Positions 1,937-33,389 of a DNA stretch of 64,000 nt are shown piece by piece (positions within the stretch are counted from its first letter, which is position 1; each line of letters opens with the position of its first letter). This stretch comes from an uncultured Clostridiaceae bacterium (GTDB lineage Bacteria; Bacillota; UBA994; PWPR01). The DNA is taken from the NCBI GenBank assembly GCA_964546025.1, contig CAZJHT010000010.1, forward strand, positions 175 through 64,174, given 5' to 3'. Under the pieces are notes generated by a model that saw only the letters and a program-made list of their open reading frames with translations, did no database searches and had not been told where the DNA came from. Both the position numbers and the translations under genes were made by a program.

Positions 1937-4515
1937 TAGAGTTTCACCATATCGTACCAATTTTTCCCTATCTTTATATCAACTTTTATCGGTACACTTA
2001 AATTCATAGATTCTCTCATTGTTCTTTCTAGTATTCTAGCAACTTCATCTAGTTCACTCTCAACTACTTCAAGAACTAGTTCATCATGAACTTGTAACAA
2101 GACTCTGCTCTTGAATCCTTTTTCCTTTATTTTTTCATCGAGCTTAACCATTGCTAACTTTATTAAATCTGCAGCACTTCCTTGAATAGGTGTATTTATT
2201 GCAGTTCTTTCTGCAAAAGACCTTCTATGAAATGATCTACTATTAATTTCTGGTAAATATCTTCTACGATTTAACATAGTTTCGACATAACCTGCTTCTT
2301 TAGCCGACACTATTGTGCTATCCATATACTCTCTAACTTTTTTGTATCTATCAAAATACATTTCAATATACTCTGCAGCTTCATTTCTAGAAATATTTAA
2401 TTCTTGTGATAATCCATAATCACTTTGACCATAGACAATGCCAAAGTTAACAGCTTTAGCTCTTCCTCGCAGTTCACTATTTACATCATCTAAAGCAACT
2501 CCAAAAACTTCTGAAGCTGTTCTAGAGTGTATATCTTCTTCATTATTAAAACTTTCCATCAAAATTGGATCTTGTGATATATGTGCAAGAATACGCAACT
2601 CTATTTGCGAGTAATCAGCTGCTAATAAATAGTCATATTCCTTACCAGGAACAAATGCTTTTCTTATCCGTCTACCCTCTTCTAATCTAATAGGGATATT
2701 TTGCAAATTAGGCTCAGTACTACTAAGCCTTCCTGTTGCTGTTGATGTCTGATTATATGTTGTATGAATCCTTCCGTCATCAGCAATAAGTGGCAATATG
2801 CCTTCAATATATGTCGAATTAAGCTTTGCTAGCTGCCTATAATGTATTATATAAGCTGGCAACTCATGTTTTTCAGCTAAAATCTCAAGCACATCCTGAG
2901 CAGTTGAATAACCAGTCTTTGTCTTTTTCACAACTGGTAATTCTAGTTTTTCAAATAAAATCTCACTTAATTGCTTAGGAGAATTTATATTAAATTCCTC
3001 TCCTGCTATATTATAGATTTCTTCCTCAATATTTTCAAGCTGAGATTGCAACTCTTTGCCAATTTTCTCTAAAATTTCCCTGTTCATTGCAATACCACAT
3101 TGTTCCATATTAAATAATATAGTGGCTAATGGTAACTCCACTTCATTATATAGTTGGTCCATATTATATTCTGATATCTTATCTTGCATTAAACTATGTA
3201 ATTTTGGGAGATTCGTGATTTGGTGTTCAAAAGATTCATCTAGTGCATCCACACCAGAACTAGCCCCTTGAAGATCAAACTTTCTTATTAAATCAGAAAT
3301 CTTATAACTGCTAACTGTAGGTTCTAAAACATACGCAGCTAAAGCAGTATCAAAGACTACACCATCTAGTAATACATTTTCATCTAATAATCGATGCAAT
3401 ACCCTTTTAACTCTGTGAGTCACCTTTTCAATTTCTTTATCTGCCAAGATTTCCTTCCACAAATCATGTTGATAATATTCCTGTTCTAGGACATAAATAT
3501 CCTTTCCAGCAATAGTTAAATACATATCTGTTGTTAGTAAAAAATAAAAACACATGTTTTCTTTTATCTTATCAATAAGGCTTTTAAGAGCATCTTCACT
3601 ATCAATTTTTATAGTTGTTAATTCCTCAATATCATCATAACCTTCGTTATCTTCTCTGAGTTGTTTAGAAAAGGTATTAAACTGCATTTCAGTAAAAGTT
3701 TTGAGTAATCTATCAAAGTCAGGTTCTTCTCTGATTAGCTCATCCCAAGAGAATTCAATAGGAGTATCTAGCCTAATAAGAGCTAAATCATAGCTTAGTC
3801 TAGCTACATCGCCACTTTCTTCTAACCTTTTTGGTAAAACTTTACCACTTACCTTATCAATGTTATTTAAAACACCATCTAGATTATCAAACTCTTTGAT
3901 TAGCTTCAGTGCCGTTTTCTCACCTACACCACTTATTCCAGGAATGTTATCTGAAGTATCCCCCATCAAAGCTTTAACATCTATTAATTGCCTTGGGGTA
4001 ACACCATACTTTTCAACCACTCCATCATAATCCATCTTATCCATATCAGTAATACCTCTTTTGGTATACAATATAGTGGTATTTTTATCTGCCAGCTGAA
4101 ATAAATCTCTATCACCTGTAATTACAAATGTTGCAACATCTCCTTTAGCTTCAGCCTGTTTTGCAATAGTTCCAATAATATCATCTGCTTCATAATTATC
4201 AAGTGAAATTTGCTTGACTCTGTATCCATTTAAAACTTCTTCTATATACCCGATTTGTTCTCTTAACTCTTCAGGCATACTACTTCTAGTTCCTTTATAC
4301 TCCTTGTACATGTCATTTCTAAAAGTCTTAGACCCCTTATCAAATGCCACAGCTATATAATCTGGGTTAAGATCTTCTAACACTTTACGAAACATACTTG
4401 TGAATCCATATACTGCATTTGTAAACTTACCTGATTCTGTCTTTAAAGTAAGCGGTAATGCATAAAAAGCTCTAAAAGCTAAACTATGTCCATCAATTAA
4501 CACTAATTTCTTCAA
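1936..4515 (-). CDS. polA: DNA polymerase I
   Basis: 859 aa with a 5'-nuclease N-terminus (LIDGHSLAFRAFYA, GDRDLFQL) and pol A motifs (DYSQIELRILAH, QVHDELV). TTG start with GGAGG 8 nt upstream. Confidence 0.97.
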   Translation of the reverse strand: MKKLVLIDGHSLAFRAFYALPLTLKTESGKFTNAVYGFTSMFRKVLEDLNPDYIAVAFDKGSKTFRNDMYKEYKGTRSSMPEELREQIGYIEEVLNGYRVKQISLDNYEADDIIGTIAKQAEAKGDVATFVITGDRDLFQLADKNTTILYTKRGITDMDKMDYDGVVEKYGVTPRQLIDVKALMGDTSDNIPGISGVGEKTALKLIKEFDNLDGVLNNIDKVSGKVLPKRLEESGDVARLSYDLALIRLDTPIEFSWDELIREEPDFDRLLKTFTEMQFNTFSKQLREDNEGYDDIEELTTIKIDSEDALKSLIDKIKENMCFYFLLTTDMYLTIAGKDIYVLEQEYYQHDLWKEILADKEIEKVTHRVKRVLHRLLDENVLLDGVVFDTALAAYVLEPTVSSYKISDLIRKFDLQGASSGVDALDESFEHQITNLPKLHSLMQDKISEYNMDQLYNEVELPLATILFNMEQCGIAMNREILEKIGKELQSQLENIEEEIYNIAGEEFNINSPKQLSEILFEKLELPVVKKTKTGYSTAQDVLEILAEKHELPAYIIHYRQLAKLNSTYIEGILPLIADDGRIHTTYNQTSTATGRLSSTEPNLQNIPIRLEEGRRIRKAFVPGKEYDYLLAADYSQIELRILAHISQDPILMESFNNEEDIHSRTASEVFGVALDDVNSELRGRAKAVNFGIVYGQSDYGLSQELNISRNEAAEYIEMYFDRYKKVREYMDSTIVSAKEAGYVETMLNRRRYLPEINSRSFHRRSFAERTAINTPIQGSAADLIKLAMVKLDEKIKEKGFKSRVLLQVHDELVLEVVESELDEVARILERTMRESMNLSVPIKVDIKIGKNWYDMVKL

Positions 4516-4530
4516 AATATCGCCTCCATA

Positions 4531-4558
4531 TAAAAAAGCTGCCTTTTTGTGGCAGCTT
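4531..4558 (-). terminator. Rho-independent terminator after the SIMPL gene, immediately upstream of polA
   Basis: Minus strand reads AAGCTGCC-ACAAAAA-GGCAGCTT followed by TTTTTTAT. Confidence 0.6.
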
Positions 4559-4559
4559 A

Positions 4560-4589
4560 ATTATATCATTTTTACTTACTGAATAGCAA
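4560..4589 (-). promoter_or_regulatory. Candidate sigma-A promoter for polA (TTGCTA-N18-TATAAT, TG two nt upstream of the -10)
   Basis: Minus strand reads TTGCTA (4589-4584), an 18-nt spacer, then TGATATAAT with the -10 at 4565-4560. The -35 lies in the last codons of the SIMPL gene. Confidence 0.35.
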
Positions 4590-10850: not shown

Positions 10851-12610
10851 TATTCAGCACCTCCTGCATCTAAGAATGCCTCAAACATATCTTTTTCTTT
10901 GTATTGCTCATCAAAAGTTTGCTTGTAGTATCCATTATTGTTTAGTAACTCTTGGTGTGTTCCTTGCTCTATTATCTCTCCATGGTCAAGTACATAAATA
11001 TAGTCAGTGTTTTTCACTGAGGCTATTCTATGAGCAATAACAATTGTTGTTCTGTTTTTCATAACAGACTCCATATCTTTTTGAATCTGATGTTCTGTTT
11101 CCATATCAACACTTGAAGTAGCATCATCCAAAACAAGTATGCTTGGGTTTCTTACAAGTGCTCTAGCAATAGCAATTCTTTGCTTTTGACCACCTGAAAG
11201 GCCTATACCACGCTCACCTATTGCAGTATCATATCCTTTTTCCATCTCCATGATAAAATCATGCGCTTGTGCTATTTTAGCAGCACTTATTATCTGTTCA
11301 TCTGTTGCCTCAGTATTTCCAAAAGCTATATTATTTTTAATAGTATCAGAGAATAAGAAAATATCCTGGTGAACTATACCAATATCTCTTCTTAAGTCTT
11401 CAAGCTTTATATCCTTAATGTCAGTATCATCTATCTTAATTTCTCCACTTTGACAATCATAAAACCTACTGATCAAACTAATGAAAGATGATTTTCCACT
11501 TCCTGTTTCACCAATGATCCCTATATTATGTCCTGCATCTATTCTTAGTGAAAAGTCTTTTAGCACATCGTTTTCACCATATGAAAAAGTAACATTACAA
11601 AACTCTATATTACCTTTGATCCTTTCTACGCTTACTGCTTGGTCTGAATCCTTGAGTTCGATCTCTGTATCTAATACTTCAAATATTCTATTTCCAGCTG
11701 CAACTGACCTTTCAAAGAAATTGACTAAAAATGCCATTCTTCTAATTGGCCAAATTAGAGAAAAAATATAAGAATAAAACTCTGCCAACTCTCCAACTGT
11801 TATATTATCTAAAATTACTTGATATCCGCCAAACCAAACAACAGCCAAAGCACTTAATCCGCCAAAAAATTGCATTAGTGGCATATATGTTGCTCTTATA
11901 GTAATAGCATTCATCATTTTAGTAAAATAACTAAGATTTTCTTTATCAAATTTTTCTTTTTCATGTTCTTGGGTGTTAAATGCTTTTACAACTCGTACAC
12001 CTGTAATGTTCTCCTGAATTGAGTTTGTCATTACGGCCATTTGCTCCCGTATTTGCATATACGCTGGTCTAATTTTATATGCAAATTTGACTGTTGTTAA
12101 AAACAAAAAAGGCAAAGTTGCTAGTGCTAATAAAGTTAACTGCCAGTTAATTCTTAGTAAAACTACTAGTACAAATGAAAATGTAAATATAGCATCATAT
12201 AATTCCAATAATCCATCTGCTAATAAATGTTTAAGAGAATGAACGTCACTACTAATTCTTGACATTAATTCTCCAGTCCTTGCCTTATCATAATATGAGT
12301 AAGGAAGCTTTACTAAATGAGAAAAAATACTTTTTCTTATATCTTTAATTGCTCCCATAGCGATTCTTTCTGATAAATAGCCTTGAACGAATCTAAAAAT
12401 TCCTCTACCTACTGCTATACCTATCAATGCTGCTATTATCCATGGTAATAAATTTATTTGTGATTCATAGATAACATCGTCAATCAGTACTCGAATAAGC
12501 TTTGGGCGCATCAATCCAAGCACTGTTAAGATAGTCAGCGATACAAATGCTGAAAATAATAGCATTAAATAAGGCCTATAATAACTAAAAATCCTCTTAA
12601 TAGTTTTCAT
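10850..12610 (-). CDS. ABC exporter, fused permease/ATPase (heterodimer partner A)
   Basis: Walker A GETGSGKSS, signature LSGGQKQR and Walker B ILVLDDATS. TAATG overlap with the downstream partner. Confidence 0.9.
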   Translation of the reverse strand: MKTIKRIFSYYRPYLMLLFSAFVSLTILTVLGLMRPKLIRVLIDDVIYESQINLLPWIIAALIGIAVGRGIFRFVQGYLSERIAMGAIKDIRKSIFSHLVKLPYSYYDKARTGELMSRISSDVHSLKHLLADGLLELYDAIFTFSFVLVVLLRINWQLTLLALATLPFLFLTTVKFAYKIRPAYMQIREQMAVMTNSIQENITGVRVVKAFNTQEHEKEKFDKENLSYFTKMMNAITIRATYMPLMQFFGGLSALAVVWFGGYQVILDNITVGELAEFYSYIFSLIWPIRRMAFLVNFFERSVAAGNRIFEVLDTEIELKDSDQAVSVERIKGNIEFCNVTFSYGENDVLKDFSLRIDAGHNIGIIGETGSGKSSFISLISRFYDCQSGEIKIDDTDIKDIKLEDLRRDIGIVHQDIFLFSDTIKNNIAFGNTEATDEQIISAAKIAQAHDFIMEMEKGYDTAIGERGIGLSGGQKQRIAIARALVRNPSILVLDDATSSVDMETEHQIQKDMESVMKNRTTIVIAHRIASVKNTDYIYVLDHGEIIEQGTHQELLNNNGYYKQTFDEQYKEKDMFEAFLDAGGAE

Positions 12611-12627
12611 AAATAGCTCCTTTTAAT

Positions 12628-13077
12628 TTACTCGTCTTGCACTTTGTGTAAGTTTTCCTCCATCATCAAAAGAAATTTTCTCATCAGTGTCATTTCTTCT
12701 TCACTAAAATTTGCATACGTCTCTTGTTCTAATTGCTGGATTTTCTTCTCCAGTTCTTCCTTTACTTCTTTTCCATGGTCAGCTAAATAGATACGTGAAA
12801 CTCTCATATCTTCAGTATCTTGTTCCCTATATATAAAGCCTTTTTTCTCCATTCTTTGAAGCATGCGGGTAACTGTTGCTGGCTGCAAATTTCTATAATT
12901 TGCTATCTCTTTTTGCTTTAGCCCATCATTATCCCATAACAGTTTTAATATTCCTGGTTGACCTCGATGCAATCCTAGGCTGTGGTATAACTTTCTTGCT
13001 CTATTTCTGTGCAAATGAACTACCCTTACAAAAAGTCTATCAACTGACAAATTCTCTGAATCTTCTTTTCTATACAT
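12628..13077 (-). CDS. MarR-family transcriptional regulator
   Basis: 149 aa with a winged helix (LKQKEIANYRNLQPATVTRMLQRMEKKGFIYR). First gene of the ABC exporter operon. Confidence 0.88.
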   Translation of the reverse strand: MYRKEDSENLSVDRLFVRVVHLHRNRARKLYHSLGLHRGQPGILKLLWDNDGLKQKEIANYRNLQPATVTRMLQRMEKKGFIYREQDTEDMRVSRIYLADHGKEVKEELEKKIQQLEQETYANFSEEEMTLMRKFLLMMEENLHKVQDE

Positions 13078-13124
13078 AATAACACTCCTCTCATGATTTA
13101 GTAGACGACTAACTAACTTATTTA

Positions 13125-13153
13125 ATTGTAATATGCAACTAATTCTATGTCAA
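13125..13153 (-). promoter_or_regulatory. Candidate sigma-A promoter (TTGACA-N17-TACAAT) of the MarR-ABC operon
   Basis: Minus strand reads TTGACA (13153-13148), a 17-nt spacer, then TACAAT (13130-13125). An imperfect palindrome TTAGT-N9-ACTAA follows and could be a MarR site. Confidence 0.45.
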
Positions 13154-13154
13154 T

Positions 13155-13183
13155 AAAAAAACCAGGCTTTATGCCTGGTTTTT
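13155..13183. terminator. Rho-independent terminator (bidirectional shape)
   Basis: AAAAAAACCAGGC-tttat-GCCTGGTTTTT. Confidence 0.75.
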
Positions 13184-13187
13184 AAAC

Positions 13188-14801
13188 TTATTTTCTATAC
13201 ACACACTCGCCACCTACATAAGTAGCAAGAACATTTAAGTCTTTAATTCTTTCTGCATCAATTTCCATGATATTTTCTGATAGAACAACAAAATCAGCAA
13301 GTTTATCAATTTCTAAAGATCCTTTGATATGCTCTTTTCTCTCTGCAAAAGCTGAGCCATTAGTAAATAAACCTACAGCTTCATAAGCAGTTAGTTTCTC
13401 ATCTGGCAAGAATCCTCCATCAGGATTACCATCAAGATCTGTTCTTGTCACTGCTGCTGCTAGTCCTAAAATTGGATTGCATGGTTCTACTGGCGAATCA
13501 GAGCCACCTGCAGTAGCAATACCCATTGTCCTCATTGTTTTCCACACATATGATTGCATCGTTCTTGCTTTTCCAAGTCTATCTTCAACAATTTTCATGT
13601 CTGTTGGTACAAAGATAGGCTGAATGTCACAAACTACACCTAGTTCTTTCATCTGCTCTAAGATATGCCAGTTTGTTATTTGAGCATGAATAATTCTAGG
13701 TCTTGCATCTTCCTCTTTTGCATTAGGAATAACCAATTTGAAAGCATTAAGAAGCTTTTGCATTGCAGCATCACCAATAGCGTGAGCTGATAATTGCATT
13801 TTCTTTTCATGTCCTTTTAAGTACATTTCGTTAATCTCATCTTGAGTCATAATTGACACACCACATGTAGTTGCATCATCTGTATAAGGTGCATGCATAT
13901 AGGCAGTTCTGCCTCCTAAAGAACCATCAGTCATTAATTTGAGAGGTCCATATGTAATAGTGTTTTCAGGGAACTGATATCTATCTCTTATTTCAAGATA
14001 CTTATCTATTTCACTTGGGTCAGACAATCTGATTTGATGATCCACTCTTAGTTTTAAACCGTTTTCAACTGCTTCTTGATAGGCTTTTAACTTTTCTTCC
14101 ATACTTCCATCTGGAGACCCTAAATCGTCAGATTGAACTGAAGTAAGACCATAAGATAGTGCTAGTTCTGCACCTTTTTCTATATGTCTGATATAATCTT
14201 CTTTTGTAAATTTGGGAATTAAGTTTGACACAAGTCCCATTGCTCTCTCTCTAAGAATCCCTGTTGGAAATCCATCTTCGCCGATATCTATATGTCCGCC
14301 AACTATTTGCTCCACAGGTGTTTTCATCAGCCCAGCAAGCTCTAAAGCTTTTGTGTTTGCTACACCTACATGTCCACAAGTCCTTCTTAAAAACATAGGT
14401 CTATCAATACTTACTTTATCTAAATCGTGCCTATCTGGCATAACTTGATCTTCAAACTTAGACTGATTCCACCCTCTGCCAAGAACCCATTCTACCTGCT
14501 CGTTCTCTGTTGAAAAATCTTGACACATCTTGATTAACTCATTTCTAGACTTAACTTCGTCTAACATAACTTGCTCAAGTGCCATGCCAATGCTCATTAG
14601 GTGCATATGACTGTCATTTAGTCCTGGAATAATAGTTTTTCCTTCAAGGTCTACTTTTTTAGTGTTATCGTTTACTAAAGCTAAAATGTCATCACTTGAA
14701 CCAATTGCTTTTATGATTCCATTATCTACCAATATAGCATTAGCTTCTTTGCCCTGTGCATCCATTGTGTATATTTTTCCATTAAAAAAAGCTGTTCTCA
14801 T
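13188..14801 (-). CDS. Metal-dependent amidohydrolase (Amidohydro_3 / YtcJ-like)
   Basis: HxH motif (PGLNDSHMHL), internal HAIGD and C-terminal GSD motifs. Start ambiguous: the ATG at 14801 (MRTAFFNGKIY) has AAAGGAG upstream, and the alternative ATG at 14825 has no RBS. Confidence 0.85.
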   Translation of the reverse strand: MRTAFFNGKIYTMDAQGKEANAILVDNGIIKAIGSSDDILALVNDNTKKVDLEGKTIIPGLNDSHMHLMSIGMALEQVMLDEVKSRNELIKMCQDFSTENEQVEWVLGRGWNQSKFEDQVMPDRHDLDKVSIDRPMFLRRTCGHVGVANTKALELAGLMKTPVEQIVGGHIDIGEDGFPTGILRERAMGLVSNLIPKFTKEDYIRHIEKGAELALSYGLTSVQSDDLGSPDGSMEEKLKAYQEAVENGLKLRVDHQIRLSDPSEIDKYLEIRDRYQFPENTITYGPLKLMTDGSLGGRTAYMHAPYTDDATTCGVSIMTQDEINEMYLKGHEKKMQLSAHAIGDAAMQKLLNAFKLVIPNAKEEDARPRIIHAQITNWHILEQMKELGVVCDIQPIFVPTDMKIVEDRLGKARTMQSYVWKTMRTMGIATAGGSDSPVEPCNPILGLAAAVTRTDLDGNPDGGFLPDEKLTAYEAVGLFTNGSAFAERKEHIKGSLEIDKLADFVVLSENIMEIDAERIKDLNVLATYVGGECVYRK

Positions 14802-14854
14802 AAACTTTTCATCTCCTTTTATCATCTAAAGTATATTTTAGCTCATATTCTAAG

Positions 14855-14893: not shown

Positions 14894-17359
14894 TTAATAT
14901 TTAGGTCTAATATTTGCTCTCTTTAGTAAGTTTGCATTACTCACAACTGTAATCGAGCTTGTAGCCATAGCTAGTTCTGCAATAGCAGGATGTAATAACC
15001 CCAATATAGCAATTGGTACAGCTACAAGGTTATATATAAAGGCCCAAAATAGATTTTGCTTTATCTTTCTAAATGTTGCCTTAGATAGTTTTATAGCACT
15101 TACAACTGCTGATAAATTACCTTGTACAAGGGTTACATCAGAAGCTTCTATTGCTATGTCTGTCCCTGTTCCTATCGCTATACCAACTTCTGCTTGGGTT
15201 AAAGCTGGAGCATCATTAATTCCATCTCCTACCATGGCTACTACTGTTCCTTCATTTTGTATTCTCTTAATCTCTAAAACTTTACCATCAGGCAATACCT
15301 CAGCAATAACTTCTTCAATTCCTGCTATTTTTGCTATAGCTTTTGCTGTTCTTTGATTATCTCCTGTTAACATTACAGTTTTAATGCCCATTTCTTGCAG
15401 TTCTTTAATTGCGTTTTTGGAATCATCTTTTATTGCATCTGCAACTGCTATCATTCCAACAAATGACCCATCTATAGCAACTGCTATTACAGTTTTTGCA
15501 TCTTCTTCTAATTGATTAAACTTTTCTACATCACTTACTTCTATATTGTTCTCATTCATCAACTTTATGCTTCCTACTAGGATTTCTTTGCTATCAGCAA
15601 ATCCCTTTATTCCTCTTCCCGTAAAGGTTTCAAACTTATCTAAATCAAACAAATCAAGATCATCATTAACTGCTTTTGTTATCACTGCTTTAGCTATAGG
15701 GTGCTCTGAGCCTCTTTCTGCACTTGCAGCATATCTCAAAAATTCTTCCTTTGATAAACCATTTGTGATTATATCAGTTACCTCAGGTTTGCCTTTTGTT
15801 ATTGTGCCGGTTTTATCAAATACTATAGTCTTAATTTCTTGAAGTTTCTGTATAGCAGCTCCGTCCCTAAAAATAATACCTGCTTGTGCACCCATTCCGC
15901 TACCGACCATTAAAGCTGTTGGTGTTGCTAGTCCTAATGCACATGGACATGCTATTACAAGTACTGCAACCATAGCATAAATTGCTTGCGCAAACCTATT
16001 AAGGTGACTCTGGAATGTCCATGGGAACACCCTAGATATTAAACTTACAATAGGAGAAGCTAATGCAGCCATTTGGTCTGGGAATACCGCCCATAATAAA
16101 AACGTTACTAAAGCTAAACCCATAACAATAGGTACAAAAACACTTGTTACTTTATCTGCAAATTCTTGTATAGGGACTTTCGTACCTTGTGCTTCTTCAA
16201 CCATCTTTATAACTTGCGATAAGAAAGTATCCTTACCTATTTTTGTAGCCTTTACATGGATCAATCCTTCTTGATTTACTGTTGCACCAATAACTTCCTC
16301 TCCAATTGACTTCCTAACTGGCATTGACTCTCCAGTAACCATAGATTCATCTATAGCACTTTCGCCAAAAACAATTTCTCCATCTGTTGGAATAGAGCTT
16401 CCTGGCTTAACTACTAAAGTATCTCCTATTTCTACTTCTTCTATTGCTATTTCAATTTCTTTACCATCTCTTATTACAAGAGCACTCTTTGCTCCTAATT
16501 CAAGTAATTTCTTAATTGCTTGCGATGCTCTTCCTCTAGCTTTAATTTCTACATACCTACCTGTTAAATGAAACGCCATTATCATTGCTGCTACTCCAGC
16601 AAAGTTAGGTAAATGCACAAAGAAATGCATTATTCCTGTAGAAAAAGCCGCTGCTGTTCCTAATGCTATCAAAGAGTCCATGTTTGGCACCTTATTGAGT
16701 ATTGCTTTAAATCCAGACACCATAGTAACTCTTCCTGGTCCTAATAAGGCGAAACTAGCTAATAATATCATGCCTATTTCATGATACTGTGGAAACGGCC
16801 ATCCATGTTCATACCCTAAAAACATTCCTGGTATCATCCACAGCATAGCTGGAATTGTTACAATCCATACTAGCCACATCTTTTTCTTAGCATCTTTTAT
16901 CATTTTTTCATCTTTATCTACTTCAACTTCATTTGTATCTAGTTCTATTTTATAACCAATCTTATCTACAGCATTTTTCATTTGACTTATGGTAACATTA
17001 TTATTATAACTTACTTTTAGCTTTTCTTGAGCTAAGCTTATAACAGCACTTTCAACGCCATCTATTTGCGAAAGAACTCTTTCGATGTTTTTAGCACATG
17101 ATGCTCAGGTCATTCCTGTTACATTAAAAGAGACTTTGTTTATTTCATCATCTACTTCTGGAGTATATCCAGCATCTTTAATCACTTGTTCCAAATCATC
17201 AATACCTAAGACTGTCTCATCGTAATCAATACTGGCAGTAAGTGTTGCTAAATTTACATTAGCTTGCTTAACTCCAGCTGTTTCAGATAAAACTTTCTCT
17301 ACTCTTGATGAACATGCTGCACAATGCATATCCTCCACTCTTATCTTTATTTTTGCCAT
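14894..17359 (-). CDS. copA: Copper-type P1B heavy-metal ATPase with two N-terminal HMA domains. One in-frame TGA (17105-17107) sits at the first Cys of the second CxxC motif, so it is a candidate selenoprotein.
   Basis: Track ORFs 17105..17359 and 14894..16981 are in the same frame (2466 nt = 822 codons). I translated the gap 16982-17104 and found no other stop. HMA1 is EDMHCAACSS and HMA2 is NVTGMT-TGA-ASCAKNIERVLSQIDGV. Core motifs are CPC (ACPCALGL), DKTGTIT, TGDN and GDGINDAP. Family call about 0.95; the Sec interpretation is lower. Confidence 0.85.
17069..17084 (-). promoter_or_regulatory. Candidate bacterial SECIS-like hairpin downstream of the copA UGA
   Basis: Minus strand reads CGAAAG-AGUU-CUUUCG, a 6-bp stem. 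The stem begins 20 nt after the UGA and the apical loop 26 nt after it. G is the second loop nucleotide. Confidence 0.45.
17105..17107 (-). other. In-frame UGA, candidate selenocysteine codon (UASC in place of CxxC)
   Basis: Plus-strand tca equals minus-strand TGA. It is flanked by ...GGA ATG ACC | TGA | GCA TCA TGT GCT... Confidence 0.6.
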
Positions 17360-17379: not shown

Positions 17380-19632
17380 CTATTTATTATCTTTTAACAA
17401 TCTCATACCATTTAGTATTACCACAAGAGCTGCTCCAGTATCAGCTAAAACTGCAATCCAAAGCGTTAACCATCCTGGGAAAACCATAAATATCGCAGCT
17501 AGTTTAACAACTAATGAAAATGCAATATTTTGCTTTATAATACTAATGGTTCTATTACTAAGTTTAATTGTATATGGCAGCTTATTTAAATCATCTGACA
17601 TTAAAACTATATCAGCAGTATCAAGCGCTGTATCTGTACCTGCTCCTCCCAAAGTAATACCAATATCAGCAAGCGCTAGTGCTGGTGCGTCATTAATTCC
17701 GTCACCAACCATAATGACTTTCTTATATGTATCTTGCAACTCTTTAACTACAACTAGCTTTTCATCAGGCAATAAATTAGCATAGAATTTATCAATCCCT
17801 AAGTTCTTACTAACAGTATTAGCACTATACTCATTATCGCCTGTTAACATAACTATGTTGTCTATTTTGTTTTCCTTTAGACTAACTATTGTTTCTTTTG
17901 ATTCTTCTCTTAGCGTATCTGATATAGTAATTGCCCCTAGCGATACCATATCTTTAATTACTACAACTATAGTTTGTCCGTTTTCATTTGCCTTTTTATA
18001 CGATTCTTTAATATTTTCTAAGTTAACGCCTAGCTCCTTTGCAAATGCTGGTTTTATTACAAGAACTTCAGATCCATCTATATATCCTTTTACTCCTTGG
18101 CCAGTCAATGATTCAAACTTTTCTGCTTTTAAATATTTTACGTTTTTCTCATTTGCATAAGCTAGTATCGCCTTAGCTAGTGGGTGTTCAGAAAAACTCT
18201 CTATGCTAGCTGCATACATGAGTGCCTGATAATCCGTTACATTAATAACTTTTGGCTTACCTATTGTTAAAGTTCCAGTTTTGTCAAATGCAATAGCTTC
18301 AGCTTTCCCAACACCTTCTATATGAGCACCGCCTTTAATTAAAATGCCATTTCTAGCAGCGTTGCCAAGGGCAGACACAATTGATACAGGTGTTGATATA
18401 ACTAAAGCACATGGGCAAGAAACAACTAATAGCGCTATGGCTCTATAAAACCATTCATGGAAGTTCCCACCCAAGAATACTGTGGGAATGAAAACGATAC
18501 TCACAGCTAACAAAATCACAATAGGAGTGTAATACCTAGCAAATGTATCAACAAACCTTTCTGAAGGAGCTTTTTGCCCCTGAGCTTCTTCTACAAGCTC
18601 AATAATTCTATCTAGTGTGGTGCTCCCACTTTCTTTTGTAACACGTACTTCTAAATATCCTTCTTCATTAATGGTCCCAGCATAAACTGTATCCTCCACC
18701 ATTTTATCTACAGGCATTGATTCACCTGTTATAGGTGCTTGATTAACACTAGACTCCCCTGATAAAACTATTCCATCAAGAGCTATCCTATTACCTGGTT
18801 TTATTACTAATATATCATTTATTTTTATCTCATCAACATTAAGTGTTACTTCTTTTCCATGCTTTTTAATAGTAGCCTTTGTTGGTGTAAGATCCATAAG
18901 ATTTCTAATAGACCTTCTTGTCTTATCCATTGAGTAAGATTCAAGTGACTTACCAATCCCAAATAATACTGCAACCATAGCTCCTTCACTATATTCACCA
19001 AGGTAAATCGCTCCTATAATTGCAATTATAAGTAAGACATTCATATCAAGAGGCATCTTATTAACTAAAGCATTAACTCCAGCCTTTGCTGGATAGTAGC
19101 CTGCTAACAATGTTGATAAAATCAACAAGCCATTGATTACTGGTGATGTCTCATAAATAGCCGACCCAATAAATGCTACAGCTAAAACTCCTGTAGCAAT
19201 CAATGTTAGTACTACTTTTAAATCCTGCCACCACTTAGTTTTTTCAAAGCTCACTTCTGTACTTTTTTCTATTTTATACCCAATTTTTTTTACCACTTGA
19301 ATTATTTCATCTGATTTTATATTATGACTAACCCTTAATACTGAAGTATTAAAGTTATACTCTGCAAACTCTACACCATCTATTTGAGCAACTGCTCTTT
19401 GTACCCCTTTGGCACACTCTGGTCAATCTACCCCTGAAACGTAAAACCTATCTTGATTTCTAGCTTTGATAGCTTCATCACTTAAGCCACCTTTAAATTC
19501 CACAACATTATCATTTGTGTGGCTATGATCATGTGAATGGTTTTTGCTGTGCTGGTGATCATGACTGTGATTATGATCATCATCACAATCACTACAACAT
19601 TGTTTTATTTCAACATCTTGACTATGGTCCAT
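17380..19632 (-). CDS. cadA: Cd/Zn/Co-type P1B heavy-metal ATPase with a His-rich N-terminus and one HMA domain. One in-frame TGA (19423-19425) sits at the first Cys of the CxxC motif, so it is a candidate selenoprotein.
   Basis: Track ORFs 19423..19632 and 17380..19296 are in the same frame (2253 nt = 751 codons). I translated the gap 19297-19422 and found no other stop. The N-terminus is CCSDCDDDHNHSHDHQHSKNHSHDHSH and the HMA is FYVSGVD-TGA-PECAKGVQRAVAQIDGV. Core motifs are CPC (SCPCALV), DKTGTLT, TGDN and GDGINDAP. Confidence 0.85.
19386..19397 (-). promoter_or_regulatory. Weak candidate SECIS-like hairpin downstream of the cadA UGA
   Basis: Minus strand reads GAGC-AGUU-GCUC, only 4 bp. 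The stem starts 25 nt after the UGA and the loop 29 nt after it. The loop is the same AGUU as in copA. An alternative hairpin GUGCC-AAAGG-GGUAC at 19401-19415 lies closer to the UGA. Confidence 0.3.
19423..19425 (-). other. In-frame UGA, candidate selenocysteine codon (UPEC in place of CxxC)
   Basis: Plus-strand tca equals minus-strand TGA. It is flanked by ...GGG GTA GAT | TGA | CCA GAG TGT GCC... Confidence 0.6.
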
Positions 19633-19646: not shown

Positions 19647-19991
19647 TTAAATATGATTCAAGTGTTCTATTCCTTGCTTTATTATTGCCTCAACATGTTC
19701 ATCATCAAGAGAGTAATATACTCTTCTGCCTTCTTTTCTACTCTTTACAAGCCTTGACGCCCTTAAATATCGTAAGTGATGAGAAACATTTGATTGAGTA
19801 GTGTCTAGTATCTCAGATAGATTACACACACATAGCTCATTCAAGGATAAAGCATAAAGCAACTTTGCTCTTGTATCATCAGCCAGTGCTTTAAATAAAT
19901 CTGATAATCCATGTAACTGATCTACCTTTGGTTTAACTTCTTTTATAATCTCATCTTCTACAGATAAAACTTCACAAACTTCTGTTGTCAT
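19647..19991 (-). CDS. ArsR/SmtB-family metal-sensing repressor (CadC/CzrA-like)
   Basis: 114 aa. ELCVCNLSEILDTTQSNVSHHLRYLRASRLV is the family wHTH with the alpha3 Cys pair. Its stop lies 14 nt before the cadA start. Confidence 0.9.
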   Translation of the reverse strand: MTTEVCEVLSVEDEIIKEVKPKVDQLHGLSDLFKALADDTRAKLLYALSLNELCVCNLSEILDTTQSNVSHHLRYLRASRLVKSRKEGRRVYYSLDDEHVEAIIKQGIEHLNHI

Positions 19992-24431: not shown

Positions 24432-24893
24432 CTAAATAACTCCAGTTGCTCTAAGTAACACTTCTGCAATTACTGCTGATCCTACAAATGTTCCTGTAAA
24501 TACTAAAAGAGCTATTACAATAATCTTTGGACCAAGTTTTGCAAAAGAACCAATATCTTTACCGATTGAAATACCAGCATATGCTAGGATTGGCGTACAA
24601 AGAGCAAGGAACTGAACTTTTGATGTATGCTCTAAGAAAAACGCACTTCCTGGTGTCCATGGTAAACTCAAAATTATACCTGTTAAAGATATGTATGCGA
24701 TTGCAGGTAATTTAACTGGTACAAGGTTCTTTAGAGTTAACCCTATTACAACTACACCAAGTAGAATTAAAACACCTAAGACAGCTTGCAATGGGTTTAC
24801 TGGATTACCAGCTCTATATGTAAATATCCAGTTACCTATTAATGTTATTACACTTGAAATTAAAAGAATTCTTACTTGCTTTGCTAATTCCAT
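24432..24893 (-). CDS. Small polytopic membrane protein (about 4-5 TM), function unknown
   Basis: 153 aa and hydrophobic throughout. TAATG overlap with the upstream membrane-protein gene suggests translational coupling. Confidence 0.6.
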   Translation of the reverse strand: MELAKQVRILLISSVITLIGNWIFTYRAGNPVNPLQAVLGVLILLGVVVIGLTLKNLVPVKLPAIAYISLTGIILSLPWTPGSAFFLEHTSKVQFLALCTPILAYAGISIGKDIGSFAKLGPKIIVIALLVFTGTFVGSAVIAEVLLRATGVI

Positions 24894-25716: not shown

Positions 25717-27027
25717 CTAATTATTTGTTAAATCTCGCCACATTTTTAAATATTCATCTTTTGACATAACTTGCTCATAATTACTAGCTACTTCTTTAGC
25801 TTTTGAAGCATTATCAAATAGTAAGTCTATCACAGTCATAGCCATACATTTTGCTGGAACTACATAAGCAGCTACTTCATCAGCAATTTTATAGTCTCTT
25901 GTATGAGCAGTACCTGAAATACCACCTGTATAAGGATGAATTGATGGTACTATATGACTAACATCTCCCATGTCAGTTGAACCACCAATTTTTTCAGCAA
26001 TGTAAACATTGTCTTCTCCAACAACTTGATTAGCATTATCTCTAAATAATTCTGTCATAATCTCTTCTTGAATCATCGGCAAATATCCTGGGATTTCAGT
26101 AATCTCTACCTTAGCCCCTACAGAAATTGCTCCGCCTTTTAGCGCATTATTAACTTTACTATTAGCATCGATAATTGCATCTAAGTTGCTTCCTCTAACA
26201 TATGTTTCAAGTTTCACTTCAGATGGGACTATATTTACTAAATCTCCACCTTTAGTAATGATAGGATGAACTCTTATTGCATCATTATCTCTAAATGTTT
26301 CTCGATTAGCATGAATACCCATAAGTCCTAGCATAGCTGCATTAAGAGCATTAACTCCTTCATGAGGTGATCCACCTGCATGTGCTTCTTTTCCTAGATA
26401 TTTTACAGTTTTACCAATAAATCCATTACTACCTCCACCAACAAATACACTTTTATCAGGGGATGATGAATTACTATGGATCATCATAGCTACATCAACA
26501 TCATCAAATTCTCCAAACTTAATGAGTTCTTGCTTACCTCCCATAAACTCAATCTCACCATCTGCTTGTAGCCTCTGACGATACTCTAACTCTACAAACT
26601 CTTCAGCTGGTACAGCAATAAGCTTGACTATACCATCTAAGTGCTCCATTACTTTACTTTCTGACAAACCGATTGTCACACCAAGCAAAGCTGCAATCAT
26701 AGCATTATGTCCACATGCATGAACTGCACCTGTTTCTTTATCAGCATCTGGATGTTCATAACAAAGCACAGCATCAAGCTCACCAAGTACTGCTACTTTT
26801 GCTTCGTTGCTTTTACCAGCTAACTCTCCAATTACGCCAGTTCTTGCAACTTCTGAACGATAACTAACACTATACTTATCAAAAGTATCTTTTACTAATT
26901 GAGCAGTTTTAAATTCTTTATAGCCAAGTTCAGGGTTTTCCCAAATTTGTCTGCCAATAGCAATAATCTCTTCTTGATTAGTATCGATTGCTTCAAGTAC
27001 TAATTTTTTTAGTTCTTGTTTATTCAC
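25717..27027 (-). CDS. M20D-family amidohydrolase (aminoacylase / AbgB-like)
   Basis: Metal-ligand motif HACGHN and M20 dimerisation-domain topology. Start trimmed to the GTG at 27027 (VNKQELKK), with AGGAGG 7 nt upstream. Confidence 0.85.
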   Translation of the reverse strand: MNKQELKKLVLEAIDTNQEEIIAIGRQIWENPELGYKEFKTAQLVKDTFDKYSVSYRSEVARTGVIGELAGKSNEAKVAVLGELDAVLCYEHPDADKETGAVHACGHNAMIAALLGVTIGLSESKVMEHLDGIVKLIAVPAEEFVELEYRQRLQADGEIEFMGGKQELIKFGEFDDVDVAMMIHSNSSSPDKSVFVGGGSNGFIGKTVKYLGKEAHAGGSPHEGVNALNAAMLGLMGIHANRETFRDNDAIRVHPIITKGGDLVNIVPSEVKLETYVRGSNLDAIIDANSKVNNALKGGAISVGAKVEITEIPGYLPMIQEEIMTELFRDNANQVVGEDNVYIAEKIGGSTDMGDVSHIVPSIHPYTGGISGTAHTRDYKIADEVAAYVVPAKCMAMTVIDLLFDNASKAKEVASNYEQVMSKDEYLKMWRDLTNN

Positions 27028-27081
27028 TACAGCACCTCCTTTTTTTATTTCACACTTATTATACACTTTTTTAACAAAAAG

Positions 27082-27120
27082 TTAAGAGTATACAGTATAT
27101 ATAGTACAGTACACTCTTAA
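27082..27120 (-). terminator. 12-bp inverted repeat (one mismatch) with a U-rich tail, either a terminator or an operator between two hydrolase genes
   Basis: Minus strand reads TTAAGAGTGTAC-N15-GTATACTCTTAA followed by CTTTTTGTT. A TATAAT at 27063-27058 follows, so this may also be a promoter/operator region for the M20D unit. Confidence 0.5.
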
Positions 27121-27183
27121 TTGTATGATATATTATTCATTTTACTTCGTATTTATAGGTGAAAATACATTAATTACTAATTT

Positions 27184-28830
27184 TTATGCAATATATACGA
27201 TTTCACCATCAAAAATCGTCATTTTAACTTTAAGATCTTTTATTTCTTCATCCTCTATTGCTGTTATATCTCTATCTAAAACAGCTATATCAGCTAGCAT
27301 TCCAGGGACTAATTTACCCTTAATATCTTCTTCAAAGCTTAAATATGCACCATTAGTAGTCATCATTTTAAGAGCCTCAAATATAGACACTTTTTCCCTC
27401 TCTCCTGCTTGATGACCTAATGCTCCTTTTCTAGTAACAGCACTATAGAGGTTATAAAATGGATTAAAATGAGCTGAAGGCATATCTGTACTAATTGCAA
27501 CTTTTATATCATTCTTCAAATAAGTTTTTGTCGGTGTGAAGTCTGCTTGTTTTTCTTTTGACATTAGATTGTCATACCCTGAAGCTTCCCCATAAATAAA
27601 AGCTGGTTGAATTGCAGCTATAATTTTGGCTTCTCTCATCATTTGTAGTGCTTTTTCTGTTGGATAGTATCCGTGTATAATCTGATGCCGTCTATCTTCT
27701 GGATTTGCTTTATATGCTTTATATATAGCCTTTACTGCTAGTTCTTGTGACTCATCACCCACAACGTGAATACCTACTCCCCATCCTGCATCATGAGCAG
27801 TTTTAACATACTCATCTAACTTTTTTAAGTCTAGTCGAAAAGGTATGTCTTTCCTAACACTATCTTCACCTAAATATGGCCACGATAAATAAGCTGTCTT
27901 TGAAGTTAGCCCTCCATCGATAGCCATTTTTAAACCACCTAGCCTTAGCATGTTATCCCCAAAATTAGTATAAAAACCTAGCTCTGATATCAACCTTTCT
28001 ATTTTATCTACTTCTTGCTTTATATGAAAACCATACCAGTTTGGCATTAGTGTAGTTCGTACTTTTAACTCCTCGTTTTGATAAAGATTTTGATACGCAC
28101 GCATAATAGCAGGAGTGACACCGGGCTCAATTATACCTGTAATTCCGTATTTTAAATACTCTTGATGTGCTAGCTTAATTGCTCTTTCAGTTCCTTGATT
28201 AATTCCAATTTTATCTGCTCCAAATGGCCCTGGCATTGCATCTCTAACAAGCTGTTTAGCTTCTCTGAATAATAAACCTGTTGGTTCTCCATTTTCATCT
28301 CTATCAATCACACCATCTTTAGGATCTTTAGTGTTTTTATCAATTCCTGCAAGTTCTAAAGCTTTTGAATTAGCTACACAGGTTGAAAATATTCTTTCTA
28401 AAACAACAGGATGGTTTTTTGATACTTGATCTATATCATGCTTTGTAGGCATTCTTTGCTCTCTAAACTGTGTTTCATTCCAACCCCCTCCCTGAAGCCA
28501 TTCTCCATGAGGTAAATTACTTAATTTACTGCTAATTTTTTTTCTTAACTCTTCAAAATCTTTAATCCCAAAAGTAACTAATCCTTCTATAAAACGCCCT
28601 GCTTCCCATGCATGATTATGAGTATCAATTATGCCAGGAATTACAGATTTTCCTTCAAGATCAAACTTTTTAGTCGCTTCACCACATATGCTCAATATCT
28701 CTTTATTAGTGCCAACTGCCATTACCTTGTTATCCAGAATAGCAATTGCATCAACCATTTCATCATTATTCATAGTATGGACTTTTCCATTTAGCAATGC
28801 AATTTGTGGTCTTAAATTAATATGTTTCAA
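27184..28830 (-). CDS. Metal-dependent amidohydrolase (Amidohydro_3 / YtcJ-like), paralogue of 13188..14801
   Basis: HxH motif (PGIIDTHNHA) and VHVVGDES. 548 aa. TTG start after AAGGGGG. Confidence 0.85.
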   Translation of the reverse strand: MKHINLRPQIALLNGKVHTMNNDEMVDAIAILDNKVMAVGTNKEILSICGEATKKFDLEGKSVIPGIIDTHNHAWEAGRFIEGLVTFGIKDFEELRKKISSKLSNLPHGEWLQGGGWNETQFREQRMPTKHDIDQVSKNHPVVLERIFSTCVANSKALELAGIDKNTKDPKDGVIDRDENGEPTGLLFREAKQLVRDAMPGPFGADKIGINQGTERAIKLAHQEYLKYGITGIIEPGVTPAIMRAYQNLYQNEELKVRTTLMPNWYGFHIKQEVDKIERLISELGFYTNFGDNMLRLGGLKMAIDGGLTSKTAYLSWPYLGEDSVRKDIPFRLDLKKLDEYVKTAHDAGWGVGIHVVGDESQELAVKAIYKAYKANPEDRRHQIIHGYYPTEKALQMMREAKIIAAIQPAFIYGEASGYDNLMSKEKQADFTPTKTYLKNDIKVAISTDMPSAHFNPFYNLYSAVTRKGALGHQAGEREKVSIFEALKMMTTNGAYLSFEEDIKGKLVPGMLADIAVLDRDITAIEDEEIKDLKVKMTIFDGEIVYIA

Positions 28831-28852
28831 AAATTAACCCCCTTATTTAACT

Positions 28853-28885
28853 ATAGCCACAAAAGTGTTTAGCTTTTGTGGCTAT
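28853..28885. other. 13-bp perfect intergenic hairpin without a proper U-tract on the transcribed (minus) strand
   Basis: ATAGCCACAAAAG-tgtttag-CTTTTGTGGCTAT. On the minus strand it is followed by AGTTAAATAAGG, so it is more likely an mRNA processing or stability element than an efficient terminator. Confidence 0.4.
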
Positions 28886-28892
28886 CTATTTG

Positions 28893-30083
28893 TTACTCTT
28901 TGCTCTCTTTATATGCTTTAAATTCTGCTTTTGCTTTGGCTAGATACTCATCATTAGTAAATAGATCATAAGCAACTCCTGCTAATGTCTTTGCACCAAT
29001 CACGATTCCTCTATGCCCTTCTTCAGATACTGTAGCATCAGCTAAGTCTGTTGAATGTCCATTTAGTTTTTTGCTTGAAATACTAATATATGGGTGAATG
29101 CCAGGAAGTTCTTGTGATACATCTGCCATATCAGTAGAGCCAGCACCATGCTCTGCTGGTGGCAAAATTGACTCGCCTAATGCTTCAATATTATCCTTAA
29201 ATAAACCACTTAATACCTGATTATTTACCATGTTTTTATATGTATTAGCTGTTTGACGCATTTCAACTTCTGCGCCTGCTGCTAATGCACCAGCTTTTGC
29301 ACAGTTTTTAACCTTTTCTACGACTTCTTCCAGATAATCTGCATCTATTGATCTCACATACATTCTAATTACAGCACGGTCTGGCACTATATTAGGCGCT
29401 TTTCCACCCTCTGTTATTACACCATGAATTCTTACATCAGGCTTAACATGTTGTCTTAATGCATTAAACCCATTAAATGTCTGGATAGCAGCGTCTAGTG
29501 CATTAATTCCTTCATGAGGGGCTCCTGCAGCGTGAGATGTTTTTCCTTTGAATACAATTTCCATAGCATATCTCGCATTTGATGAAGTTCCTAGTCTATG
29601 TTGTCCTGTTGAAGGATGGAACATAATTGCAGCGTCTATATCTTTAAATGAACCATTTTCAACTAAAATTACTTTTCCTCCAGCATTATCAACTACACCT
29701 TCTTCAGCTGGGCAACCCATTAATACTAACTTGCCTGGGAGTTCTTCCATTGCATTTTTAAGTGCTATTGCTCCTCCAACAGCACCTGTAGCTATTACAT
29801 TATGCCCACAACCATGCCCTATGCCTGGTAAAGCATCATATTCTGCTAAAATTGCAATTGTTGGTCCTGGTTTTCCTGTACTATACTCTGCTCTAAAAGC
29901 GGTTTCTAGTCCTCCATAAGGAAACTCTACCTCAAAACCATGTTCTTTTAGTATATTTGCTAATTTTTCTGCTGCCCCAAATTCTTGGTGTCCTAGCTCT
30001 GGATTATGATACATCCAATCATTGATTTCAAAAAGACTTTCCGCAATGTTATCTGCTTGTTTGTAAATTAATTCTTTATTCAT
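28893..30083 (-). CDS. M20-family amidohydrolase/peptidase
   Basis: 396 aa with the motif GHGCGHN and typical M20D organisation. AGGAGG RBS. Confidence 0.85.
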   Translation of the reverse strand: MNKELIYKQADNIAESLFEINDWMYHNPELGHQEFGAAEKLANILKEHGFEVEFPYGGLETAFRAEYSTGKPGPTIAILAEYDALPGIGHGCGHNVIATGAVGGAIALKNAMEELPGKLVLMGCPAEEGVVDNAGGKVILVENGSFKDIDAAIMFHPSTGQHRLGTSSNARYAMEIVFKGKTSHAAGAPHEGINALDAAIQTFNGFNALRQHVKPDVRIHGVITEGGKAPNIVPDRAVIRMYVRSIDADYLEEVVEKVKNCAKAGALAAGAEVEMRQTANTYKNMVNNQVLSGLFKDNIEALGESILPPAEHGAGSTDMADVSQELPGIHPYISISSKKLNGHSTDLADATVSEEGHRGIVIGAKTLAGVAYDLFTNDEYLAKAKAEFKAYKESKE

Positions 30084-30142
30084 TAGTACCCTCCTAATAT
30101 TTGAGTCTATATAATTAATTCGACAAGCTAAAGATAATTCCT

Positions 30143-30679
30143 TTATTTAATCTGCTCATATTCACTTTTGAGGACAGAATAACATAAATCATCATGAATT
30201 GTTCCATCATATATTTTTGTTGCCATTCTCAAAGTTCCTTCGTATTTAAAGCCTAGCTTTTCGATTACTCTTTGAGACTGCTTGTTAAATGGATAATGAT
30301 AAACAGTTATGATTTTTACACATCGATCTTCAAATAAATGTCTTATCACTTCTTTGCCTGCTTCAACTATAATGCCTTGTCCCCAATAATCTTCGTGAAG
30401 AACATATCCAAGTGCAAAAACATTTTCTATCCTTCTTTTACTGTCTGGGTGTATTCCAAAAGACCCTATGACCTTTTTATCTTCTTTATGATAAATTGCA
30501 TAAACTTCATCACCTTTAATAAAGGAGTCAAAGATTTTCCTAGACTCTTCCTCTGATTCATGGGGCTTCCAGCCAGCCATGGGTCCCACCTTTTTGCTTT
30601 TACCTAAATCATAAAAATCATTAAAGTCTTCTTCAACATATTGCCTTAATATCAACCTACTTGTAACTAGTTGCTTCAT
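30143..30679 (-). CDS. GNAT-family N-acetyltransferase (RimJ/RimL-like)
   Basis: 178 aa. N-terminal RLILRQ, WGQGI and a Q-R-V-x-E-K-x-GF acetyl-CoA motif. ATGA overlap with the MFS gene. Confidence 0.88.
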   Translation of the reverse strand: MKQLVTSRLILRQYVEEDFNDFYDLGKSKKVGPMAGWKPHESEEESRKIFDSFIKGDEVYAIYHKEDKKVIGSFGIHPDSKRRIENVFALGYVLHEDYWGQGIIVEAGKEVIRHLFEDRCVKIITVYHYPFNKQSQRVIEKLGFKYEGTLRMATKIYDGTIHDDLCYSVLKSEYEQIK

Positions 30680-31860: not shown

Positions 31861-31888
31861 AACAATACTCCTTTCGTTAGTTTTATAT

Positions 31889-31937
31889 ACAAAAATAAAG
31901 CCCAAAGGACGATATTAAGACTCGTCCTTTGGGCTTT
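31889..31937 (-). terminator. Intrinsic terminator forming the riboswitch expression platform
   Basis: Minus strand reads AAAGCCCAAAGGACG-agtcttaatat-CGTCCTTTGGGCTTT followed by ATTTTT, a 15-bp stem ending about 30 nt before the MFS start. Confidence 0.7.
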
Positions 31938-32022
31938 TATCCCAAAAGTGTAACAATCAATGCCTCACACCGCTTGGACCAGACACTTATATAAAGTCGG
32001 AACCCTAGATGTGCTCTTAATT
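31889..32022 (-). promoter_or_regulatory. ykkC/yxkD-class (guanidine-I family) riboswitch-like leader; subtype not assignable by eye
   Basis: Minus-strand RNA reads CUAGGGUUCCGAC...GUCUGGUCCAAGCG-GUGUGA(loop)UUACAC-UUUUGGGAUAAAAGCCCAAAGGACGAG. This matches the conserved blocks I recall for ykkC (CUAGGGUUCCG / GGUCCGAGAG / ACAC..GGGAnAAAAGCCCGGGAGA). A P3-like hairpin UUUGGG-AUAAAAG-CCCAAA is present, and the terminator shares the GCCCAAAGG segment. Confidence 0.7.
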
Positions 32023-32029
32023 GCATGAT

Positions 32030-32058: not shown

Positions 32059-32107
32059 GCAAATTAATTTAAAAATTAACTTATTTAATATTCCTGTAAC
32101 ATTTTCT

Positions 32108-33346: not shown

Positions 33347-33389
33347 ACTTACTAGCTCCTTTTTTATCTTCTTAAACTACCTTGTATTA

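Follow-up and report, generated by a model that had tools for sequence, protein, structure and literature searches.

A selenocysteine (Sec)-containing cation-transporting ATPase has been listed as a previously described selenoprotein family (PMC1976440), and the GOS survey records it with a UxxC motif (PMC2398784). A count of 32 such genes in 25 organisms (PMC5029168) already implies several copies per genome. The heavy-metal form is tabulated under COG2217/TIGR01525, with UxxC as its motif and ABB15669.1 as an example (PMC9312934, PMC13188914), and according to a 2026 review more work is needed on what transporter selenoproteins of this sort do. Here we analyze a 64,000-nucleotide stretch of a contig from an uncultured Clostridiaceae bacterium (CAZJHT010000010.1, positions 175 to 64,174; hereafter the window), in which two adjacent P1B-ATPase genes, one of the CopA type and one of the CadA type, each contain a single in-frame UGA in place of the first cysteine codon of an HMA-domain CxxC motif. 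Judging from sequence comparison, we estimate with a probability of about 87% that both are true selenoprotein genes and not pseudogenes.

The two pumps belong to a known, purely predicted kind of selenoprotein. As in the described family, to which they are likened through their match to TIGR01525, they are heavy-metal P1B ATPases that have Cys-type homologues and carry an in-frame UGA within a UxxC motif. They may differ from it in that a Cu-type and a Zn/Cd-type Sec pump stand in tandem in one ArsR-headed gene string, and in that the CopA-type pump, which has two HMA domains, carries its predicted Sec in the proximal one only. Cys-type CopA proteins of Bacillus subtilis and Escherichia coli have two N-terminal HMA domains and the same signature motifs, whereas the window gene encodes the first ligand of the proximal loop by UGA rather than TGT or TGC and has a hairpin embedded in the HMA coding sequence. 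A Sec soft-metal ligand in an HMA-type loop is also a feature of the "UxxU metal-binding (seleno)protein" model NF041115 and of MerT/MerP-like selenoproteins (PMC2398784, PMC13188914). These, however, are small proteins not fused to a pump, and some of them have two Sec residues, whereas the window pumps would have a single Sec in a pump-fused domain; the second HMA domain of CopA scores 86.8 bits against NF041115, under its cutoff of 95.

Two further systems bear on how such a gene might be read. The bacterial Sec insertion sequence (SECIS) has a stem of 6-8 base pairs (bp) and a conserved loop G about 20 nucleotides (nt) past the UGA (PMC4605307). Like the SECIS of E. coli fdhF, the CopA hairpin described below lies in the coding sequence 3' of the UGA, with a stem of 6-7 bp and a G-U in the apical loop. 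It differs in the position of the loop G, which is at 28 nt in CopA and at 31 nt in the second of the pair of short hairpins found in the CadA-type gene, and in that no Rfam model matches the hairpins of the window. The second system is E. coli copA, which makes a chaperone, CopA(Z), by programmed frameshifting, as reported second-hand in PMC7558416 (citing Meydan 2017 and Drees 2017). One copA gene could likewise yield a short product consisting of the first HMA domain (HMA1) together with the full pump in our case, but the short product would come from failed UGA recoding rather than from frameshifting, and any function of it is putative.

Two P1B-ATPase genes with one in-frame UGA each

The full-length CopA-type (P1B-1, Cu+/Ag+) gene occupies positions 14894..17359 of the minus strand. 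Translation gives a single 822-codon frame from 17359 to 14894, in which the TGA at 17107..17105 is the sole internal stop; the segment 16982..17104 is stop-free. The gene thus has 821 sense codons, counting the one UGA as Sec85, whereas gene callers report two products of 84 and 695 amino acids. The TGA (17105..17107, minus strand) replaces the first Cys of the CxxC motif in the pump-proximal HMA domain (GMT-U-ASC). Its context is ...SFNVTGMT-TGA-ASCAKNIERVLSQIDGV, also read as ...NVTGMT-TGA-ASCAKNIERVL.

Pfam finds E1-E2_ATPase, Hydrolase and two HMA stretches in the translation. The first, distal HMA domain (17150..17353, minus strand; Pfam stretch at residues 6-66) is of the Cys type, with MHCAAC. 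The second, proximal domain (HMA2; 16940..17137, minus strand) bears the UGA, and residues 74-143, which cover it, align with domain 2 of B. subtilis CopA (1JWW/1KQK) and with the metal-binding domains of ATP7B. When U is replaced by C, the UGA region aligns with GMTCASC of the ATP7B metal-binding domains, with 2RML/1P6T among the matches; the N-terminal 150 residues match this B. subtilis CopA pair with E = 2e-29. The first-pass annotation of this gene had described one frame interrupted only by this TGA, had placed the TGA at the first metal-ligand Cys of the second HMA domain, had noted the intact Cys pair of the first domain and had expected a product of about 821 residues; translation, Pfam and the alignments agree with it on each of these points.

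In the Arguello classification, P1B-1 Cu(I)/Ag(I) pumps are recognized by DKTGT, a transmembrane CPC, N-x6-YN-x4-P and M-xx-SS. The translation contains FDKTGT, ACPCALG, NLFWAFIYNLVAVP and MATSSITVVSN, and we assign the pump to P1B-1 because it has the CPC, N-x6-YN-x4-P and M-xx-SS signatures. The profile matches agree: 569 bits to TIGR01511 (cutoff 397) and 626 bits to TIGR01525 (cutoff 346).

Immediately upstream lies a full-length CadA/ZntA-type (P1B-2, Zn/Cd/Pb) ATPase gene (17380..19632, minus strand), with its ATG at 19632 and its stop at 17380. It is likewise a single frame with a single TGA, of 750 sense codons. Its product has a His-rich leader followed by a single HMA domain, in which the one UGA is counted as Sec70, whereas gene callers cut the frame into products of 69 and 638 amino acids. 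The TGA (19423..19425, minus strand) again stands where the HMA CxxC motif would have its first Cys (SGVD-U-PEC), in the context ...YVSGVD-TGA-PECAKGVQRAV. This second TGA (19425..19423) was missing from the first-pass annotation. Pumps of the P1B-2 (CadA/ZntA) class, specific for Zn, Cd and Pb, share the signatures CPC, N-x7-K and D-x-G-x7-N. The translation has SCPCALV, NIAFSLVVK and DTGAALVVILN, which is the basis of our P1B-2 assignment, and the match to TIGR01512 agrees (528 bits, cutoff 313). It also matches TIGR01525 with 617 bits (cutoff 346); the ZntA equivalog models score under their cutoffs, so that membership is given at the subfamily level only.

A six-frame scan for pairs of long open reading frames (ORFs) joined by one TGA yielded, on the coding strand, only the CopA-type and CadA-type genes. 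The 84-residue CopA fragment ending at the TGA is on record from six contigs and four independent sources (NCBI, JGI, Logan and ENA). This recurrence across independent assemblies reproduces the base call and argues against a sequencing error.

Conservation of the UGA codons among relatives

For both pumps, every one of the nearest relatives in the protein database (51-76% identity) is missing its N-terminal part and has no HMA match. Through these truncated matches we reached contigs with the same split-gene layout and TGA at exactly the same codon, in a total of 10 CopA-type and 8 CadA-type loci with protein identities of 46-76%. Thirteen distinct N-terminal fragments of 84-87 residues in the databases all end in ...GMT. 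A TGA-containing CadA locus is present in a complete isolate genome, that of Clostridium sp. "deep sea" (CP063353.1), where NCBI annotates the pump as a 685-residue ATPase (WP_195160866.1) and the Sec form is missed.

Synonymous divergence (dS) between the window genes and their orthologues ranges from 0.5 to above 2, near or beyond saturation, with no other stop or frameshift. The ratio of nonsynonymous to synonymous divergence (dN/dS) is 0.23-0.30 over the 84 codons upstream of the CopA TGA, 0.19-0.63 over the 41 codons from the TGA to the annotated ATG, and 0.07-0.10 over the pump body.

As a control set we used 160 CopA loci of at most 64% identity, collected by scanning genome and metagenome collections with the CopA protein. 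The 277 HMA motifs in these roughly 160 distant loci have TGT or TGC at the site and no in-frame stop. Among the distant CopA loci that cover the site there are two non-Cys exceptions, one Asn and one Tyr, both in degenerate second domains. The same scans detected no further TGA form among relatives at or below 64% identity.

TGA in close relatives opposite Cys in more distant homologues is the classical signature of a predicted Cys/Sec pair, and we regard decay as ruled out because the TGA is conserved at high dS (above 1), its flanks are under purifying selection and the genes have no other disruptions. The first-pass annotation had named a Cys/Sec pair in this alignment column as a sign of a selenoprotein, and scattered stops or frameshifts in close orthologues as a sign of decay. 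The pair was found, with TGA in all 18 close loci, and the diverged TGA loci are free of scattered disruptions.

One related locus, L085, from a metagenome-assembled genome, offers a natural control. Its CadA-like pump (1176-3647) is of the Cys type (SGIDCPECAKGVQKSVARL) and adjoins a CopA gene of the Sec type, which shows apparent Sec/Cys switching within the clade. In another locus, the metagenome contig L083, the CadA-like gene (2030-4573) has a second in-frame TGA at codon 91, within the His-rich leader (HTDGST-TGA-TGDHSH), and a GTG at codon 99 could be its true start; the extra TGA may encode another Sec, may belong to a small ORF of its own or may stem from an error of assembly.

Hairpins downstream of the UGA codons

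A SECIS-like hairpin (17068..17085, minus strand) follows the CopA UGA. Its core stem pairs C17084-G17079 with C17074-G17069, and its loop is A17078 G17077 U17076 U17075. The first-pass annotation had pointed out a 6-bp hairpin 20 nt past the UGA with a G in its loop, and we indeed find CGAAAG-AGUU-CUUUCG at 17084..17069, starting at that distance; the stem is 6-7 bp, and 28 nt separate the loop G from the UGA. The same hairpin is found independently by RNAalifold. Across the 10 sequences, 97% of cells are paired and the loop is AGUU, with GGUU once. The closing pair is C-G in two sequences, U-A in six and A-U in two, and an internal A-U changes to G-C, so that two pairs in all show compensatory changes. 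All of these changes are at synonymous third positions (ATC..TCG, ATT..TCA and GTA..TCT for the former; GAA..CTT to GAG..CTC for the latter). The covariation score was reached by none of 500 shuffles and by no slid register. At the same register, the 277 Cys-type HMA domains form on average about three of the seven pairs; six pairs are present in seven of them and all seven in none. Since Cys-type domains lack the hairpin, it does not simply follow from encoding the I/V-E-R-V-L-S peptide.

A degenerate copy of the hairpin is present at the same register in the Cys-type HMA1 of CopA (17257-17323, minus strand), with six of seven pairs, one internal mismatch and an AGUU loop. It may have been left behind by a duplication of the domain, or by an earlier state in which this domain, too, had Sec.

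The CadA-type gene has two small conserved hairpins (19386..19416, minus strand): hp1 at 19416..19400 and hp2, GAGC-AGUU-GCUC, at 19397..19386. Together they have 98.8% of cells paired in eight sequences, with a score that was equalled in 4 of 500 shuffles. In hp1, which has G residues 16-19 nt past the UGA, one pair covaries (U-A/C-G) at synonymous sites. The hp2 stem is 4-6 bp with a G 31 nt past the UGA; its loop is GGUC in L083, and in L169 the stem is shifted, has 5 bp and closes on GUC. Extending the AGUU hairpin to 6 bp was considered and rejected, as its outer pairs are mostly unpaired. The Cys-type CadA of L085 has the same CPECAKGVQ peptide and has lost the hairpin complementarity (6 of 10 pairs), and 183 other Cys-type HMA domains have a mean of about 3.8 of 10 pairs. 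Hairpin support for the predicted Sec codon is thus weaker in CadA than in CopA.

Selenium use and alternative readings of the UGA

The conserved UGA, the purifying selection on its flanks, the Cys of distant homologues and the covarying hairpin with no Cys-type counterpart together favor Sec insertion. The first-pass annotation had taken the copper pump for a UxxC selenoprotein form rather than a pseudogene, and conservation, selection, Cys/Sec pairing and hairpin covariation all argue in its favor.

Several observations nonetheless weigh against Sec. A Pfam scan of essentially all long ORFs of the window identified no selA, selB or selD, and ARAGORN detected neither a tRNA nor a tRNA-Sec in the window, nor a tRNA-Sec in seven related loci; selA, selB and selD did not turn up in the fetched relatives either; the window is essentially the entire 64.7-kb contig, and these negative results cover it and the fetched flanks of relatives only. 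The loop G residues, at 28-31 nt, are farther from the UGA than in E. coli, where about 20 nt is typical. The CadA hairpin has only 4-5 bp and a single covarying pair, and its register is shifted in L169. Rfam at gathering thresholds gave no match in the window, and permissive searches around both UGA codons gave only chance snoRNA matches. An RNA fold, proposed as a check in the first-pass annotation, had a mixed outcome: RNAalifold recovers the CopA hairpin, but the energies of single-sequence folds fall short of significance (z = -0.8 to -1.5), so that the case for the hairpin is a comparative one, made across genomes, and not an energetic one. Finally, the papers cited here on Sec P1B ATPases report no protein-level data on selenium incorporation for any member of the family.

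Selenium use is indicated in relatives. The gene selU, for tRNA 2-selenouridine synthase (Rhodanese + AAA_SelU), lies directly beside Sec-type pumps in three of them (L083, 4647-5693; L085, 4072-5112; and L168, the isolate locus, 12526-13575). The position of selU beside the pumps is indirect evidence that the L083, L085 and isolate lineages use selenium, which is not proof of Sec decoding. In the window, there is no selU at the position beside the pumps. Two window genes belong to families with Sec forms elsewhere and have the ordinary Cys form here, a glutaredoxin (CPYC; 35215-35445, plus strand) and an OsmC-like protein (56822-57220, plus strand).

Two alternatives accept the UGA as genuine and read it differently. 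According to the first, it is a true stop that releases an 84-residue CopZ-like chaperone made of HMA1, the pump being translated from an internal start. The 84-residue product does hold a complete HMA1 domain, and E. coli copA is cited in PMC7558416 as yielding both a chaperone and a pump. Because even E. coli recodes UGA to Sec with an efficiency of no more than 30-40% (PMC4513850), some truncated, HMA1-only product is to be expected in any case. However, the stop falls exactly on a Cys codon inside HMA2 and not at a domain boundary, the next 41 codons, which complete HMA2, are in frame and under purifying selection, and the first in-frame ATG comes 42 codons downstream, within the HMA2 fold. 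In the CadA-type gene, moreover, termination would give only a His-rich peptide without an HMA fold. We therefore consider a deliberate split very unlikely.

According to the second, the UGA is decoded but not as Sec, either as Cys, through an opal suppressor tRNA(Cys) that resembles tRNA(Sec), or by near-cognate read-through. A tRNA(Cys) that mimics tRNA(Sec) and has a UCA anticodon exists in some deltaproteobacteria (PMC5389517), and sequence data cannot tell which amino acid is inserted. Such suppressor systems are rare, though, and were described in other phyla; selU beside the pumps of relatives points to active selenium metabolism; and a UGA with a hairpin is a less parsimonious way to encode Cys than the TGT or TGC of other homologues. 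We consider this explanation, too, very unlikely.

A reassigned code, with TGA read as Trp or Gly, was rejected. The stops of 51 long ORFs in the window are TAA in 34, TAG in 11 and TGA in 6, several of the TGA stops being soon followed by further in-frame stops. The genes that end in TGA include the RND, CapD and histidine kinase genes from which the first-pass annotation had concluded that TGA is a normal stop elsewhere in the window.

Nearly negligible is the probability that the pumps are dead or N-terminally truncated products of a nonsense mutation (TGT or TGC to TGA) or a miscall: TGA is indeed one mutation from the Cys codons, and gene callers and NCBI do give split or truncated products, but the same TGA stands in two paralogous genes and in 10 and 8 diverged loci without another stop or frameshift, both of its flanks are under purifying selection, the same fragment comes from independent assemblies, and a hairpin specific to the TGA form covaries.

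Gene neighborhood and other genes of the window

The two pump genes are preceded by a gene for a CadC-like regulator of the ArsR/SmtB family (19647..19991, minus strand), recognized by its ELCVCN motif and a match to Pfam HTH_5. The resulting string, headed by the ArsR gene and followed by the Sec-type cadA and copA genes, has the same order in L081, L082, L083, L168, L169, L171 and L172. In the relatives, the wider neighborhood consists, in order, of an RND pump, ArsR, a short fragment, the CadA body, the HMA fragment of 84-87 residues, the CopA body, an amidohydrolase, MarR and ABC transporters. The window is syntenic over tens of kilobases with L168 (CP063353.1, 1377435-1399492) and L169, and the genes common to the three are those for ECF sigma/zf-HC2, a GntR-aminotransferase, an ABC pair, MarR, an amidohydrolase, the pumps, ArsR, RND/HlyD and M20 peptidases.

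Elsewhere in the window, a dense cluster of hydrolase paralogues (25717-35018) comprises four genes for M20-family peptidases and one for Amidohydro_3, with DUF3100, GNAT acetyltransferase and MFS transporter genes among them. Amidohydro_3 genes are also found at 13188-14825 and 37873-39474. Three ORFs of 153-224 residues had no Pfam match at E <= 1e-5 (24432-24893, minus strand; 39474-40148, plus strand; 51975-52481, minus strand).

Proposed mechanism and role of the Sec residues

If both UGA codons are read as Sec, a ribosome arriving at either of them would encounter a hairpin in the coding sequence some 20-40 nt downstream, whose apical-loop G-U would recruit SelB with Sec-tRNA(Sec). Sec would be inserted and translation would continue, giving an 821-residue Cu(I)-type pump and a 750-residue Zn/Cd-type pump.

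N-terminal HMA sites are dispensable for transport and are thought to sense metal and relieve inhibition of ATP hydrolysis (PMC7558416). In E. coli CopA, the distal HMA site is chaperone-like, and how fast the pump turns over is governed by the proximal site (PMC7558416). The predicted Sec is, in each pump, the first ligand of the cytosolic HMA loop (UxxC for CxxC), and in CopA this applies to the proximal domain only. Selenolates are softer ligands than thiolates, and their pKa is lower. Given what HMA domains do and these properties of the selenolate, Sec most likely tunes the proximal regulatory site, where it could provide higher affinity, faster exchange or oxidation resistance for soft metals; a change of the transported substrate is unlikely. 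That the 84-residue HMA1 by-product has a function of its own, as CopA(Z) does in E. coli, is speculation.

The UGA might also act as a selenium-dependent switch, in which failed recoding would give an 84-residue CopZ-like chaperone and success a pump with a selenolate sensor domain. We regard this as unlikely. If it were true, the ratio of chaperone to pump, and hence Cu and Cd/Zn efflux, would be coupled to the selenium status of the cell, and the repeated placement of selU by the pumps of relatives would fit a selenium-and-metal regulon. In a related variant, the Sec-containing HMA domain would make these pumps favor very soft ions (Ag, Hg, Cd) or metal-selenide species.

Implications

Against the background of the described family, the tandem of Cu-type and Zn/Cd-type Sec pumps, the confinement of Sec to the proximal HMA domain and the recurrent selU neighbor may be new details. 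A practical consequence concerns annotation. Pipelines split or truncate these pumps, as in the 685-residue isolate entry WP_195160866.1, and because both gene callers and NCBI do so, metal-resistance inventories of such Clostridia miss their metal-binding domains.

To our knowledge, nearly all characterized Sec residues are redox-catalytic. Here Sec would instead be a ligand in a regulatory metal-sensing domain, and it would be so in two side-by-side pumps of different metal specificity. Sec P1B ATPases have been catalogued since 2007 without biochemistry, and the loci described here offer two natural Sec/Cys comparisons, HMA1 against HMA2 within one CopA and the Cys-type CadA of L085 against the Sec-type CadA. 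With the CadA form present in a related isolate with a complete genome, the system would be a tractable one in which to study a Sec metal-sensor domain biochemically for the first time.

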